This document shows positions 21,711 through 54,041 of a DNA stretch of 64,000 nt, in pieces. The translations under genes were made by a program, and so were the position numbers. Origin of the DNA: an uncultured archaeon. Its GTDB lineage: Archaea; Altiarchaeota; Altiarchaeia; JAFGQM01. The notes below the pieces were generated by a model. It did not search any database. It worked only from the letters and a program-made list of their open reading frames with translations, and was not told where the DNA came from. The stretch is from NCBI GenBank assembly GCA_964619365.1, contig CAZUDQ010000006.1:1-64000 (forward strand), written 5' to 3'. The stretch's first letter is position 1. Each line of letters starts with the position of its first letter.

Positions 21711-21770
21711 AGACTCGGACACCCGAGTCTTGAAGGCTAAGCTCTTTTTATCTTTTATTTTTATTCTTGG
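21711..21770 (+). terminator. Hairpin plus T-tract after gadC
   Basis: AGACTCGG-ACAC-CCGAGTCT (21711-21730) followed by a T-rich run. Confidence 0.6.
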
Positions 21771-48461: not shown

Positions 48462-48566
48462 CTTAATTGCTGAAAAGTTGTATATGATAATTAATTTCAA
48501 AAGAATAAAAACACTAAAGGTAAAACGCTCGCTCTTGATTTATTATTAATGAAAAGTAAGAAAATC

Positions 48567-49289
48567 TTACTTTCTTTTCTTGGAGATTGCCTTTAAGCGG
48601 TCCGCCTCAAAACCACCCTCGCGTAAAGTTTGCCTCAATGGAGCCCCCCTTGTACGCCACATAACTTTATGTCCTGCTTCTGCTGCCCTATTAGAAAACT
48701 TTTTTACTTGACCGCGCGCTGTCCACATTGTATTTATGTGCCGATTATACTCCGTGCGCGCACCATAATCGCTGCCCCCTTCTATTACGGCATTCACTCC
48801 TTTTTTCTTAACCATCCGATAAGCTTTTTCATCAGCTACATTAGCTAGACGTTCATGCTCCTTGGCTAATTTAAGGTTACGTTTTTGAACTCTGCTTAGT
48901 TGATTTACTTTTAATCGTTCTACTTTTACCTTAGACCCACCGTCTCGCAAAAATTGTCTAGTGGGTGCTCCGTATGTGCGCCAAGTGTGTGCCCAGTTAT
49001 ACTTAGCGGCTTCATCTGCAGAGAAATTCCGGTTCTTAGTTTCTACTGTTACTAAATCATTATATTTGACATAATCAGGATGTTCCTTGTTTATACGCGC
49101 AATATTGCGGGCGTTCTTATATGCTTCAATCCTTTGTTCAGCAACACCTGTGCGCTTAATAAAATGTTTTTTAGCAGTTGTTAACTGTTTGGCAGACATA
49201 TCCTTAAGCTCTGTATGCAAATTGACTCCTTTGGGTTTTGTTGGAAACTTCGCAAGTTTTGGGTGATATCCTCTGGGTCTTGTGGGCAT
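48567..49289 (-). CDS. Basic WRTRG-motif paralog 2 (two motif copies)
   Basis: TWRTYGAPTRQFLRDGG and MWRTRGAPLRQTLREGG..RLKAISKKRK. Confidence 0.75.
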   Translation of the reverse strand: MPTRPRGYHPKLAKFPTKPKGVNLHTELKDMSAKQLTTAKKHFIKRTGVAEQRIEAYKNARNIARINKEHPDYVKYNDLVTVETKNRNFSADEAAKYNWAHTWRTYGAPTRQFLRDGGSKVKVERLKVNQLSRVQKRNLKLAKEHERLANVADEKAYRMVKKKGVNAVIEGGSDYGARTEYNRHINTMWTARGQVKKFSNRAAEAGHKVMWRTRGAPLRQTLREGGFEADRLKAISKKRK

Positions 49290-49349
49290 TTTAAGTTGTA
49301 ATCTAAGATTTGGTCTAAAAAGATAAAAATGCCAGAAAGTAAGAAAATC

Positions 49350-50036
49350 TTACTTTTTGTTTTTAGAAATGATGCGTTTTGCTTTTCTTTTCTGCGAGAT
49401 TTTATTTAGTTTCTCCGATTTGGGGCCACCGTCTTTTATTGCTTGCTTTATGTCTGCCCCTTTAGTGCGCCACATGAGTTTAAATCTTACTTTTGCGAGC
49501 TCTTCGGTATGAATATTTTGAGCTTTTTTGGTTGCGATAAAGTTGATTTTGTGTGCACGATAAACTTCCTTGGTTGTTGTTTTAGCTTTCCCAGAGGGCA
49601 TTTGTATGTATTTTTTAAAAAGTGCTATTGCAACATCTTTATGTGTCTTTTTAGGTTCCTGACATGCAACAAGCCATTTCTTGCGTTTTTTTTCGTTTTT
49701 GCGCAGTTCATTCAACTCTTTTTTTAGGTCTTTTGCCCTCTTATTATATTCTAATGATTTATCAGCATGTACGTTTTTAGCCTCTGTGCTTATTTGCAAC
49801 GAATCAACATAGCTATTATAATTTTTGTCACCTTCTTTCGTGCTTTTGATTGCTTTTTTGAGTGCAACTAGATTCTTTTGATGTGCTTTACTAAGGCCCA
49901 TGTAATATTTTCTGCCGGCAATGGCCTGTTTTACTGAAATTGTAGAATTAACATTAGTAGCAGCGTTAAACCCCTTTGGTTTCTTTGCCAAGTTGGTGAA
50001 TTTTTCTCTAGGCTTTTTTACTGATTTTGAAACCAT
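49350..50036 (-). CDS. Basic WRTRG-motif paralog 3
   Basis: MWRTKGADIKQAIKDGGPKSEKLNKISQKRK. Confidence 0.75.
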   Translation of the reverse strand: MVSKSVKKPREKFTNLAKKPKGFNAATNVNSTISVKQAIAGRKYYMGLSKAHQKNLVALKKAIKSTKEGDKNYNSYVDSLQISTEAKNVHADKSLEYNKRAKDLKKELNELRKNEKKRKKWLVACQEPKKTHKDVAIALFKKYIQMPSGKAKTTTKEVYRAHKINFIATKKAQNIHTEELAKVRFKLMWRTKGADIKQAIKDGGPKSEKLNKISQKRKAKRIISKNKK

Positions 50037-50098
50037 TTTTAATTAGCATGCCTGACTAGGATAAGCAATAGACTTAAGAGTAAAGAGATAAAAATCCT

Positions 50099-50285
50099 AA
50101 AAAGTAAGAAAATCTTACTTTCTCGGAAATACCCGAGGAGTATTGTCGGGTTACTTTGTAACCCAACGTAATAGAAATTTAAAAAGTAAGAAAATCTTAC
50201 TTTATCGGAAATACCCGATGAGTATGGTCGGGTTACTTTGTAACCCAACATAATAGAAATTTAAAAGGTAAGAAAATCTTACTTT
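50099..50285. repeat. 82-bp tandem repeat (2 units plus a third palindrome), three hairpins per unit
   Basis: Period 82 (50099, 50181, 50263); 4 substitutions between units 1 and 2. Confidence 0.92.
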
Positions 50286-50809
50286 TTCGTTCTCCTTGAT
50301 TTTTTTCTCATATTTGAAATAAGTTTTAGTCTAAATGCCCCAATCCCACCTTTTTTCATTTTAGTCTTAAGCTTAGATCCGCGCGTGCGCCAGATAATTG
50401 CAGTCTCGTAATCTGCCCTTCTATTATTGAGGTATTTAGTGTAGGCTCCCTTTGATTGCTTGATTTGTCCGTCATAATCTTTTCTTCTGTACTTTAGCTC
50501 GCTTAAATTCAGCTTGTTAACATCAAGACCCTCTCTTAACTTTACTAATTCGGATTCTGCAAGCCGCCGTCCCTGTTTACCCTCTTTTATGTCTGCCCGA
50601 GATGATCTAAGTTCTTCCTGCTTACTGGCAATTTTCCGAAGTTCCTCGACATGTTTTATTCTACTACGAACCTCAGCTTCTGGCATTCCATTAATCTCTT
50701 CTTTTCTCAAGTCACCAAGAGGTGCAATTTGGAGTTGGTATGGTTCTCTGTGAGGTGGGCGTTTGATTTTAAACCATCCCAAAGAGGGCTTTTCCTGTTT
50801 TGTGGGCAT
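50279..50809 (-). CDS. Basic WRTRG-motif paralog 4
   Basis: IWRTRGSKLKTKMKKGG...RLKLISNMRK. Confidence 0.75.
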   Translation of the reverse strand: MPTKQEKPSLGWFKIKRPPHREPYQLQIAPLGDLRKEEINGMPEAEVRSRIKHVEELRKIASKQEELRSSRADIKEGKQGRRLAESELVKLREGLDVNKLNLSELKYRRKDYDGQIKQSKGAYTKYLNNRRADYETAIIWRTRGSKLKTKMKKGGIGAFRLKLISNMRKKSRRTKK

Positions 50810-50908
50810 TTAGTTATAATCGATAGGGGTTAAGGCTAAAGGAATAAAAAATTCAAAAGTAAGAATTTCTTACTTATTTCTTTAGGTTCCTGGAAAAGTA
50901 AGAAAATC

Positions 50909-51490
50909 TTACTTTTTGTTTTTAGAAATGAGGACCGTGCGTTTTGCTTTTCTTTTCTGCGAGATTTTATTTAGTTTCTCCGATTTGGGGCCGCCGTCTT
51001 TTATTGCTTGCTTTATGTCAGCTCCGCGAGTACGCCACATGAATGCATGATTAAATTTCGCCGCTTCTCCAGCAGCTTTTTTCGCTTCGTCTTGTCCTGC
51101 CGTCCTCAACTGGCTATATCTAGTAAACAAAGGACCCTCCTTGCGTGCATCAGCTACATTACGAGCTTTCTCATATGCATTGACCCTCTTTATATTTGCT
51201 TTGTTAAGTGCGTTGTAATAGTTTCTAGCCAGTTTTACTTGTCTTGTGGACATATCCTTAAGTTTAGCATCCGGATTAACTCCAATTGGTTGTTCCGGCA
51301 ACTTGATGGATTTTGGTCTGTAGCTATTACGTCCCCCTCGCTTGCCCACACCAGTACCCTGATGACTAAACTCCATTGCACCTCGTGGGCGCGACCTTGA
51401 CGTTCTGCCTGGAACAAACTCAAACTGGATTCCATATTGACTCGCAGCAGTAGACTTAATTTCTCCGTGCGATCTCGTAGGTCTTGGCAT
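50909..51490 (-). CDS. Basic WRTRG-motif paralog 5
   Basis: MWRTRGADIKQAIKDGGPKSEKLNKISQKRK. Confidence 0.75.
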   Translation of the reverse strand: MPRPTRSHGEIKSTAASQYGIQFEFVPGRTSRSRPRGAMEFSHQGTGVGKRGGRNSYRPKSIKLPEQPIGVNPDAKLKDMSTRQVKLARNYYNALNKANIKRVNAYEKARNVADARKEGPLFTRYSQLRTAGQDEAKKAAGEAAKFNHAFMWRTRGADIKQAIKDGGPKSEKLNKISQKRKAKRTVLISKNKK

Positions 51491-51540: not shown

Positions 51541-51556
51541 TGGGGATTTCTCCCCA
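51541..51556 (-). terminator. GNRA hairpin after Cys-rich gene 1
   Basis: Minus strand TGGGGA-GAAA-TCCCCA followed by a T-tract. Confidence 0.6.
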
Positions 51557-51563
51557 GTTAGTC

Positions 51564-52382
51564 CTAGACGCAACACGCCCCACATGAACTGTGTCCACAG
51601 GTGCTTGCCGAAAGGTCTGTACTTATCCAACAAACGCCAGTGCAGGTGCTTGTCGTAGACTTTGCGACATAACAGGTTCCTCCAAGAAGTCCAGCTTCCG
51701 TTGGACACCCTTCCTCAGATACTGTAGAGTCACTGCCATCCATCGAATATGTGCAACCACAGTTTTTCATCTTTTGGATTGCCTGTTCCTCTGGCGTGGG
51801 GCTTGGTGGGTTTGGCATTGTGCACATCTCGTTTGAGTCGTGCCCGCAACCCGTTCCATCAGATTCTACCCAGCACTTGCCGTCGCATGATTCTTTTGTC
51901 ATTACCCATTGGCTGCCCTGCTTTTCTGTGTAAACGTCACTTGCTTCCGAGTCATACCAGCAGCCACAGTTTTCCATAGCGTCATTTGCTTCAGACTTTG
52001 TAAGCTCTGTTGGCTCAGGAGGTTCTGGGGGGTTTGGCATTGTGCACATCTCGTTTGAGTCGTGCCCGCAACCAGTATCATCAGTTCCTACCCAGCATTT
52101 TCCGCCGCATGATTCTTTTGTCATTACCCACTGGCTGCCCTGCTTTTCTGTGTATACTCCGTTGGCATACGGGTCATACCAGCAGCCGCAGTCTTTCATT
52201 GCGGCATTTGCCTGGGATTCGGTCAGGTCTGTTGTCGGTGTGGGTGTCGGGGTTGGAGTGGGTGTTGGCGTCGGAGTCGGTGCGGGGGCTGGAGAACCAC
52301 CCATAAGGACTACGGCCGCTATTATCGCAAGCACTATCACTACAACGCCAATAATTACTAATTGTTGTGTATCTAATGTCAT
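51564..52382 (-). CDS. Membrane-anchored Cys-rich repeat surface protein (3 repeats, PT linker)
   Basis: N-terminal TM helix, (PT)n, repeats LT.S.A..AM..CGCWYD...QWVMTKESC.GKCWV...GCGHDSNEMCTMP. Confidence 0.85.
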   Translation of the reverse strand: MTLDTQQLVIIGVVVIVLAIIAAVVLMGGSPAPAPTPTPTPTPTPTPTPTTDLTESQANAAMKDCGCWYDPYANGVYTEKQGSQWVMTKESCGGKCWVGTDDTGCGHDSNEMCTMPNPPEPPEPTELTKSEANDAMENCGCWYDSEASDVYTEKQGSQWVMTKESCDGKCWVESDGTGCGHDSNEMCTMPNPPSPTPEEQAIQKMKNCGCTYSMDGSDSTVSEEGCPTEAGLLGGTCYVAKSTTSTCTGVCWISTDLSASTCGHSSCGACCV

Positions 52383-52499
52383 TTTTGATTTGCTTAAAAG
52401 CATAAAATCTTATGGCAGATTTGATTTAAATGAGAATGCCTAAGGAAGAATAAGATAATTGCAATAAGAAAAAGAATAAAATAAAAAAAGAAAATATTT

Positions 52500-52515
52500 G
52501 GGGAGTCACCTCCCC
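52500..52515 (-). terminator. GNRA hairpin after Cys-rich gene 2
   Basis: Minus strand GGGGAG-GTGA-CTCCCC followed by a T-rich tract. Confidence 0.6.
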
Positions 52516-52523
52516 TTAGCTAC

Positions 52524-54041
52524 TTAGAGACAACACGCCCCACATGAACTATGTCCGCAAGTGCTTGACGAAAGGTCAGTGCTTACCCAGCAGACGCCTG
52601 AACATGTGCTTGATGTAGACTCTGCAACCCAGCACTCGCCACCAAGAAGTTTTGCTTCAGTTGGACAACTCTTCTTTGAAACTGTTGAGTCGCTTCCAGT
52701 CATAGAATAGCTGCAACCGCAGTTCTTCATCATCTCGATTGCTTTTTCCTTGTCTGTTGGCTCAGGTGGATCTGGCATTGTGCACATCTCGTTTGAGTCG
52801 TGTCCGCAGTTGTAAGCATCTGTGTCTATCCAACACTTTCCGCCACAATTCTCTTTGGTCATAACCCACTGGTTGCTCTTCTTCTTTGTAGACACATCAC
52901 TTGCACTTGGATCATACCAGCAACCGCAGTTTACCATTCTCCTATCTGCTTCATCCTGGTCAATTGTGCAATCAGCCTTTGTGATATGCGTCTTTCCAGA
53001 GTATAGGTTTATTCTACATTCACCCTTACAACTGTCATGCGTTATAACAAGGTCGTCGCCATCATATCTTGTGTGGCTTTTACTGCTACCTGCATCAAAC
53101 GGGCATCCATTGTCTTCAAGGCGCCTGACAGCCGTACTCTTTGACATCTTACACTGTGGGTCGCCTGGAATCTGTGTGTCACCAGTGTTCACATTGATTT
53201 TACACTGTTCCTGGCAATTCTCCTCTTTCATAATATAGTAGTCTCCACTGCGGTAGACGTCAACATCACTGTCTGAAGGGTCAAATGGACAACCTGCAGC
53301 TTCCATTTTTGAAACCGCCTGGCTTCTTGTTAATGGGCCTTCTTTACATGCTGGACCGCCTGCATCAACGTGGACATATCCTGTGTTCTTGTTACAGGTA
53401 CACTGTCCATTACAGCCTGTCTTTTGCATGACATACTGGTCAGCACTCCATGTTACTGAGACACCAGTGTCGCCGTAATTATAGAAACATCCGCCGGATT
53501 TCATCTTATCGATACATTCCTGCTGTGTGAGCCCTGGAGTTAGTCCCGTGCACATCTCGTTAACATCATGTCCGCAACCCGAACCGTCAAGATTTACCCA
53601 GCATTTTCCACCACATCCGGATTTCGAGATAATCCATTGGTTACCTTCTTGGGCTATCGACTCGTCTGGGTCTGATAAATCATACCAGCAACCACATGCC
53701 ACCATTGCCGATGTTGCTTCAGACTTTGTTAAGTCCTGTGTCGGAGTTGGCGTTGAACCGCAGTCTGCAGTTATATCAATGTTGCCTGACTTTTCGTTGA
53801 TTGCACATGAACCGGTGCAACCTTCTTTTGTCATCGTCAATACGTCACCTGAAATCGAGACTGAGACGCCTTCCTCACTTTGTGAGTATGGGCATGTTGA
53901 ACTTTCAAGTCTAGATATCGCTTCACTTGGTGTCAGTTCGCTACTTGATGAACCGCCGCTTAGTAAAACAACTGCTGCGATTACAACAACTAGGACTACT
54001 ACCACTAAAATCACTATTTGTTTAGAATTGTTTGAATCCAT
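52524..54041 (-). CDS. Membrane-anchored Cys-rich repeat surface protein (~7 repeats)
   Basis: N-terminal TM helix; seven ~60-75 aa units; same C-terminal unit as 51564 (TCGHSSCGACC). Confidence 0.85.
   Translation of the reverse strand: MDSNNSKQIVILVVVVLVVVIAAVVLLSGGSSSSELTPSEAISRLESSTCPYSQSEEGVSVSISGDVLTMTKEGCTGSCAINEKSGNIDITADCGSTPTPTQDLTKSEATSAMVACGCWYDLSDPDESIAQEGNQWIISKSGCGGKCWVNLDGSGCGHDVNEMCTGLTPGLTQQECIDKMKSGGCFYNYGDTGVSVTWSADQYVMQKTGCNGQCTCNKNTGYVHVDAGGPACKEGPLTRSQAVSKMEAAGCPFDPSDSDVDVYRSGDYYIMKEENCQEQCKINVNTGDTQIPGDPQCKMSKSTAVRRLEDNGCPFDAGSSKSHTRYDGDDLVITHDSCKGECRINLYSGKTHITKADCTIDQDEADRRMVNCGCWYDPSASDVSTKKKSNQWVMTKENCGGKCWIDTDAYNCGHDSNEMCTMPDPPEPTDKEKAIEMMKNCGCSYSMTGSDSTVSKKSCPTEAKLLGGECWVAESTSSTCSGVCWVSTDLSSSTCGHSSCGACCL

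Follow-up and report, generated by a model that had tools for sequence, protein, structure and literature searches.

Integron cassettes are tandem units of promoterless open reading frames (ORFs), each with a palindromic attC repeat that carries core boxes and may overlap the stop codon. An array that shares some of these traits lies in the stretch of DNA analysed here, the first 64,000 nucleotides of contig CAZUDQ010000006.1 from an uncultured archaeon (Altiarchaeota), which we call the window; five paralogous genes stand in it in tandem, and a 21-bp palindrome recurs at their stop codons and in the gaps between them. The original prediction took the palindrome for the boundary of cassette-like units. 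Palindromes are also described for AbrB-fold antitoxins, which bind them at their own promoters (PMC3326315, PMC4333400), each antitoxin class having its own upstream motif (PMC3879964). The palindrome of the window proves to be dispersed over the genome and gained in one lineage, to be associated with AbrB genes in bacteria and archaea, and to lie at the boundaries of local duplications. We think it probable that it is an operator-derived dispersed repeat comparable to repetitive extragenic palindromic (REP) sequences, their hairpin-forming doublets (REPINs) and bacterial interspersed mosaic elements (BIMEs), the 21-mer being the predicted operator of an AbrB/MazE protein of S-x-[KR]-G-Q type.

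Distribution of the palindrome and its composite element

The window opens contig C6 (its first 64 kb) in a 1.21 Mb assembly (G000; 17 contigs, 85% complete), and that completeness bounds every absence from this genome reported below. Archaeal 23S and RNase P RNA were detected in the assembly, a Sep-tRNA:Cys-tRNA synthase gene adjoins the array, and the sequencing runs with this genome carry the label salt lake metagenome, no RNA run being listed among them; population evidence comes from contigs of four runs, none of which extends across the whole array.

The palindrome had been presented as a feature of the array, and this does not hold. Each copy has arms of 9 bp and a loop of 3 nt (AAAGTAAGA-AAA-TCTTACTTT; the 8+5+8 layout first proposed was wrong), and a genome search for the core, TAAGA-N3-TCTTA, gives 38 copies, seven in the array and 31 outside it, against 2.4 expected and 0-6 for the other spacer lengths (0-8). 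They form 19 loci on 10 of the 17 contigs, four of these being singles and 15 having two to four copies. Core and loop (AAA/TTT) vary hardly at all across the 38 copies, 36 of which lie outside protein-coding genes or over gene stop codons. The extended pattern GTAAGA-N3-TCTTAC is found 31 times in G000, 11 times across seven family relatives (control pattern 0) and, in total, five times in another 53 genomes from the class (control 8), with 0-3 in each of those 60 genomes.

The eleven sites in the relatives are mostly in conserved genes, with seven inside genes, two at an HSP20 gene end, one in an AbrB promoter and one intergenic. Single sites within genes are found at matching positions in several relatives, and the genes concerned are a PINA-like gene (G001, G004), nadC (G001, G006), HSP20 (G006, G007) and a UPF0004/radical SAM gene (G003). 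In the PINA-like gene of four genomes a TTA codon is part of the site or of a near match; TTA encodes 1-3 of the 41-45 leucines. The G000 match to the UPF0004/radical SAM gene (C1:104790-106070, locus L249) has two TAA stops inside.

Stop codons are the site of 12 of the 19 loci, compared with 12% of random non-coding places. The other seven are three between divergent genes and one each inside a gene, upstream of a tRNA gene, in the gap between 23S rRNA and RNase P RNA, and at a contig start. Unrelated genes (hisD, and a radical SAM gene together with its convergent neighbour) end in the palindrome at the same register. Folded as RNA the palindrome gives a hairpin of -8.4 kcal/mol, with T runs on both strands; at the 12 stop-codon loci hairpin and T run come right after the stop codon, and the palindrome is not confined to gene 3′ ends.

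Such placement is what a plain terminator hairpin would show if it had been duplicated along with genes, a caveat entered with the original prediction, and reused at other gene ends. Four loci lie between convergent genes, as would suit this reading, and stop-codon hairpins are common in the genome, those with arms of at least 7 bp occurring at 49 of 1047 genes against 8 in an inside-gene control. Among the 15 with arms of at least 9 bp, nine are this palindrome. Of the hairpins said to lie over the stops of porB and glnA, that of porB is real and that of glnA is short. A terminator does not need a fixed sequence, however, whereas core and loop here are nearly the same in every copy, and termination would explain neither the three loci between divergent genes nor the intragenic one.

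The gene-less 82-bp units of the array are real but not peculiar to it, being two of 11 copies of a dispersed element of ~103 bp composed of palindrome, hairpin B, hairpin A and palindrome, with a mean column identity of 88%. Nine units lie outside the array at seven loci. The two in the window (50101-50203 and 50183-50285, both on the minus strand, the second 95% identical to the first) are joined head to tail. In the consensus fold (RNAalifold) the two palindromes pair with two hairpins inside, and 4 of 34 pairs have two-sided changes, in a fold that leans toward itself, being derived from the same related copies on which it is judged. The palindrome loop is TTT at both ends of eight long units, AAA at both ends of two, and one of each in one. 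Short doublets of 27-54 bp occur at five further loci beside the 39-bp one of the array, with unrelated spacers; a helical phasing of the doublet spacings (27-84 bp) was considered and dropped for too few independent values. Rfam has no family for the 82-bp unit. At the doublet C8:21894-21968 (L181), between the 23S rRNA 3′ end and RNase P RNA, the copies pair crosswise, inner arm with inner and outer with outer, and not each with itself.

Several further repeats were noticed. The palindrome loci C4:31095 and C7:3843, upstream of tRNA genes, share an extra 31-nt hairpin segment. A 25-nt piece of the 82-bp unit with two mismatches (C1:10533-10557, L170) lies beside a GTGGGA...TCCCAC palindrome upstream of another AbrB paralog, and a similar palindrome precedes the homolog of that paralog in G003. 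At L129 a truncated element follows a gene end that is 94% like G000:C15, a case in which paralogs preclude a safe filled/empty reading. Another hairpin repeat, GACTCG-N5-6-CGAGTC, whose stem is like hairpin A, occupies nine places in G000 (among them 21712-21730 of the window, C2:148442 and C9:27276), often by gene ends.

Association with AbrB/MazE genes

The candidate protein is encoded by an 83-aa PF04014 gene, G000:C13:6553-6804, with four palindrome copies upstream; among the four AbrB genes of G000 it alone is of the S-x-[KR]-G-Q type. It lies between an HMG-CoA-synthase-like gene (a label from reading the sequence; the Pfam result is ACP_syn_III_C) and a PINA-like ATPase gene (G000:C13:6764-8245, L032). 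No small toxin gene directly follows it, the next gene being this ATPase, which is without the N-terminal PIN domain found in the copies of relatives; the lost PIN part holds the intragenic palindrome in G001, G004, G006 and G007. Orthologs of the AbrB gene were found in seven of the eight genomes of the order, all seven with AAGTAAGA upstream, as part of a full palindrome in G000 and G001 and as a half-site followed by TAAGAC in five. A half-site within at most 120 nt upstream is found for 9 of 11 S-x-[KR]-G-Q genes in the order and for 1 of 19 genes of other types, a comparison that covers 30 of the 55 family matches and in which six of the nine positives are orthologs. Unrelated orphan ORFs adjoin the conserved gene in several genomes (L003:674-1276 in G004, L037:2454-2975 in G006, L044 in G007, L045 in G002), and the locus looks like an insertion hot spot.

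Exact matches in public sequences came to 104 loci, 55 of them in species genomes, 45 in metagenomes and four in viral contigs. By a hidden Markov model (HMM) test, an AbrB-like domain begins 2-79 nt downstream of the palindrome in 34 of them (21 species, 13 metagenome, no viral), and every AbrB match within 1.2 kb of a public palindrome (34/34) has that placement; two further palindromes precede AbrB genes by eye. The 21 titled AbrB loci belong to Bacillota, Bacteroidota, Kerfeldbacteria, Auribacterota, Acidobacteriaceae, Woesearchaeota and Helarchaeota, and several of the AbrB-linked matches are in DNA of 56-59% GC. Ten of the 34 AbrB genes are followed by an ORF with a PIN-like start. The four viral matches are to the 19-mer, none before an AbrB gene, and one unrelated viral match is to the inner hairpin.

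These placements bear directly on the terminator reading, under which the match to AbrB promoters would be a coincidence of AT-rich hairpins. Of the 70 matches that have no AbrB gene by the HMM test, 19 have two or more extra half-sites, 27 are solitary sites with AT-rich surroundings, and 24 fall in neither group. Many of the 27 lie at gene ends, and the hairpin can therefore also arise or persist without an adjoining AbrB gene. The 27, together with the T runs on both strands and with a different hairpin (51541-51556) that fills the slot of the palindrome upstream of P0005, the first array gene in reading direction, right after the stop codon of the preceding gene, speak for a terminator. 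It leaves unexplained the copies upstream of AbrB genes across phyla, several of them in DNA well above AT-rich composition, and the intragenic copies of the relatives. A terminator and nothing else seems to us quite improbable, while the part of the caveat that concerns the 12 stop-codon loci stands.

Expansions like that of G000 are also seen in Acidobacteriaceae and in a GC-rich proteobacterium. Five further genomes, picked for holding a match and hence no random sample, have the pattern 13, 3, 3, 7 and 17 times (controls 0, 1, 0, 0 and 0). G061 (Acidobacteriaceae) has a dispersed 75-90-bp array of the same half-sites, with 3 of its 13 sites preceding an AbrB gene. The same genome has two copies, 94% identical (L085, L113), of a segment that combines a solo AbrB gene, its operator array and ~370 bp of short tandem repeats. 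In G065 (69% GC) many sites lie over stop codons, with a looser second copy nearby.

A number of observations weigh against an operator origin and have to be set beside the association. The home operator in five of the seven orthologs is a half-site plus a direct repeat and not the full palindrome; the 70 public matches just described are the majority; 14 of the 21 titled AbrB loci are from Bacillota and not independent; and in G065 no AbrB gene adjoins the sites in 16 of 16 regions. The 19 loci of G000 are not independent either, four being the array and up to four the ends of another paralog family. At the four loci between convergent gene ends there is no promoter to control, and the genes neighbouring the palindromes have no clear shared function. 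Finally, the two-sided changes in the internal hairpins and the crosswise pairing at C8 are both signs of selection acting on a fold of the single strand, for which an operator, being double-stranded, has no need.

The array and the duplications bounded by the palindrome

The seven sites of the array are where the original prediction had placed them (13 strand-matches that reduce to seven sites, with none in 100 shuffles). The five genes, all on the minus strand, encode basic orphan paralogs: P0001 (47688-48461; 257 aa, pI 10.7, two WR-x-x-G modules), P0002 (48567-49289; 240 aa, pI 10.6), P0003 (49350-50036; 228 aa, pI 10.4), P0004 (50279-50809; 176 aa, pI 10.5) and P0005 (50909-51490; 193 aa, pI 10.9). 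As had been noted, the final AAG TAA of four of them sits in one arm of a palindrome: 48553-48573 for P0002, 49336-49356 for P0003, 50265-50285 for P0004 and 50895-50915 for P0005. The half-site at the end of P0001 (47687-47694) is present, but as evidence it is weak, all of its bases but one being dictated by the Lys-stop codons. Among the sites that end no gene, 50101-50121 ends the tandem ~103-bp elements, 50183-50203 is common to both, and 50856-50876 forms with 50895-50915 the short doublet, around an 18-nt spacer (50877-50894); the reported spacings of 82, 82 and 39 bp are correct. Five of the seven are exact, 50265 has one mismatch, and 50856, with loop ATT and one arm mismatch, has three on the plus and two on the minus strand.

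Read along the coding strand, the order at each junction is stop, palindrome, T-rich box and start, the T-rich box upstream of each gene being a putative promoter. From palindrome to box the distance is 4-6 nt at three of the four junctions and 41 nt at the fourth: the TTTTTATC boxes upstream of P0002 and P0003 are each 6 nt from a palindrome (49336-49356 and 50101-50121, respectively), and 50856-50876 stands immediately in front of the box upstream of P0004. The proteins are only 24-34% identical to P0001, while the palindromes agree at 17-21 of 21 bases. All five share the WR-x-x-G module, which is modelled as a plain helix-turn-helix hairpin of two helices. The family has no Pfam or NCBIfam name and no usable Atlas hit, was not found in the 40 relatives searched, and in two large protein searches matched its own members and one strain variant only; a borderline match (E 1e-3) was set aside and not used. 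Next to the array, at 51564-54041, are two cysteine-rich proteins, probably of the surface, composed of ~70-aa repeats, nearly identical in their C-terminal part and without a Pfam family.

At several places the palindrome bounds a local duplication or exchange, and to this extent the proposal of a recombination site is upheld. The ends of P0003 and P0005 share a tract (49336-49477 and 50895-51042; 148 columns, 91%) whose likeness stops at the outer edge of the palindrome, where 7 of the next 30 bases agree, and which looks like a recent exchange between the two gene ends. Long units stand head to tail with one common palindrome at two loci, on C6 and C10. An HAD-like gene, C4:74153, has an in-frame gain of 42 nt (14 codons) that is absent from seven of seven orthologs and duplicates E-V-R-K-S-Y, encoded by the palindrome; a relative has Y-D-E-V-R-K-S at this place. 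NadC has 321 aa in G001 and 299 in G006, the extra stretch carrying the palindrome.

The stronger form of the proposal, in which a site-specific recombinase cuts out, inserts and reshuffles units of promoter and ORF at the palindrome much as in an integron, starts from the same facts: units flanked by direct repeats of a site whose centre is asymmetric, a site duplicated at the gains, and homology of paralog ends that stops at the site edge. The pattern TAA-N7-TTA also resembles the core sites of tyrosine recombinases. In one contig of run X3, moreover, P0005 is joined to the upstream region of P0002 (49372-50938), but this joint has a depth of 2.3 and 55 letters that fit both sides, and a contig of run X1 bridges the sites 50265 and 50856 in the order of the window. 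Neither the X3 joint nor a 6-nt insertion in P0003 in X1 was accepted as a rearrangement, collapse of identical 55-nt and 37-nt stretches being sufficient. Against the array as a cassette system, 31 of the 38 copies bound no such cassette, the 82-bp units occur genome-wide, and each gene has its own upstream box; the array was found in no relative. In 3 of 11 long units the loop points the opposite way relative to the unit, an inversion incompatible with a directional site. Profile searches of G000 with PF01797, PF00589, PF13358, PF01609, PF02371 and PF01867 stayed below cut-off (resolvases and reverse transcriptases were not searched), as did the one match to PF07282; neither a tyrosine recombinase nor a transposase (Y1, DDE, IS110) nor Cas1 came to light. 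For PF00589 there were zero matches in the whole genome against a positive control in 14 of 14 genomes, for which the missing 15% may account. We regard the integron-like reading as unsupported and very improbable.

Another possibility is that the ~103-bp unit is a selfish, non-autonomous element, similar to a REPIN or a transposable element of the miniature inverted-repeat type (MITE), whose ends derive from an AbrB operator and which was spread by a transposase now lost or unassembled, singles and doublets being products of decay and AbrB binding incidental. The prevalence of multiple copies (15 of 19 loci) and the burst specific to the G000 lineage suit this idea, as does the likeness of the 11 long units, which fold in REPIN-like fashion (PMC3116915) into a long stem around two hairpins, with two-sided changes. 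Y1 transposases are present in four of seven relatives, and repeats are often missing from assemblies that are 85% complete. Yet G000 gave none of the three kinds of transposase, and the Y1 genes of the relatives have their own hairpin ends: four of five such loci have no palindrome nearby, and the fifth has an imperfect copy just outside its end. By eye, the flanks of palindrome loci gave no sign of a target-site duplication, the spacers of short doublets are unrelated, the in-frame gain in C4:74153 grew on a site already in the coding sequence, and the recurrence of intragenic singles at the same place among relatives likewise weighs against it. A selfish element is, in our judgement, an unlikely origin.

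The operator-derived repeat that we favour would have arisen as follows. The 83-aa AbrB-like protein of C13 is the candidate binder of the 21-mer. In the G000 lineage the site may have left its home promoter and multiplied into singles, short doublets and the ~103-bp composite; most likely, places that already resembled a half-site (Lys-Lys-stop ends, Val-Arg-Lys-Ser codons) were completed from other copies. Being prone to form a hairpin, it would then bound local duplications by ordinary repair or unequal exchange without a dedicated recombinase, a route favoured over a site-specific system by the negative searches for a recombinase or transposase, the other ends of the Y1 elements and the loop flips. 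Where the 9-bp hairpin and its T runs follow a stop codon, they probably double as a terminator or as a structure that protects the 3′ end. In the array the site would fill the short gap between a stop and the next promoter; it presumably travelled with the tandem duplications and was retained or homogenised as genes and flanks diverged, and one gap now holds two composite elements. A protein bound there would be 4-6 nt away from the following T-rich box at three junctions and 41 nt away at the fourth.

A bolder extension, which we put forward tentatively and with more doubt than belief, is that an orphan AbrB antitoxin was domesticated as a chromosome-wide DNA-binding factor whose operator spreads. 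It would enter stop codons, promoters and even conserved coding sequence where the codons permit, would act as a boundary of local duplication and would in this way build arrays; and the operator would have become a dispersed repeat independently in the archaeon, in Acidobacteriaceae and in the GC-rich proteobacterium. If true, toxin-antitoxin operators would offer a general route to REP-like or architecture-imparting repeats without a transposase.

Comparison with known systems

We found neither this sequence nor an antitoxin operator serving as a dispersed repeat described, in a search that covered few subscription papers; GTAAG and CTTAC are absent from the main text of PMC3733652, whose repeat tables, like regulon databases, may hold the motif. 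The origin and upkeep of REP-like repeats without REP-associated tyrosine transposases (RAYTs) can be addressed here in a case where the repeat unit is traceable to a regulator family with a candidate protein in the same genome, so that one 83-aa protein together with a 21-bp oligonucleotide would be enough for a test. The same data predict an operator for an AbrB/MazE subfamily that is widespread among bacteria and archaea. They also hold a caution, in that a genome-wide repeat can produce cassette-like arrays within single windows. Should the terminator or the decayed-element reading alone hold, the outcome would be more modest, one new family of repeats from an uncultured archaeon.

The array shares with integrons its tandem ORF units and a palindromic repeat between them that lies over the stop codon. 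It differs in that the 21-mer has no RYYYAAC/GTTRRRY boxes and is 21 bp only, the genes keep T-rich upstream boxes, and most copies are outside the array. From a CRISPR array it differs in its spacers, which are genes or copies of one 61-bp sequence, and in the lack of Cas1 (0 matches to PF01867). The ends of the palindromic element, unlike those of a MITE, are inverted repeats only because each end is itself a palindrome.

Much closer are REP, REPIN and BIME sequences, which in the accounts drawn on here (PMC3116915, PMC3733652, PMC2817692) are likewise short and mostly extragenic palindromes arranged as singles, doublets and tandem mosaics, with species-specific expansion. As in our case a doublet forms one long hairpin, stop codons can come from the repeat ends, and a few copies are intragenic and in frame. 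The differences are that none of the 38 flanks has a GTAG or CGTC tag, that the repeat is AT-rich, present in 38 copies and hosted by an archaeon, that no RAYT/Y1 gene was found in G000, and that the repeat unit corresponds to the predicted site of a regulator family and not to a transposase end.

The operators of AbrB/MazE-fold proteins (E. coli mazEF 'cab' and R. felis vapBC2; PMC4333400, PMC3326315) are also AT-rich palindromes directly upstream of the gene, often with extra half-sites. Their sequence differs from ours, which has 38 copies, lies at stops and inside genes as well, and has an operator role that is predicted. Toxin-antitoxin modules pair the antitoxin with a small toxin, whereas the neighbour of the candidate here is a PINA-like ATPase without PIN. 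For a protein of this fold acting at many chromosomal sites the nearest parallel is AbrB/Abh of Bacillus subtilis, for which PMC3025583 reports hundreds of bound regions mapped experimentally; the present system differs in consisting of 38 near-identical perfect palindromes known from sequence and in the antitoxin-like type of its candidate protein.

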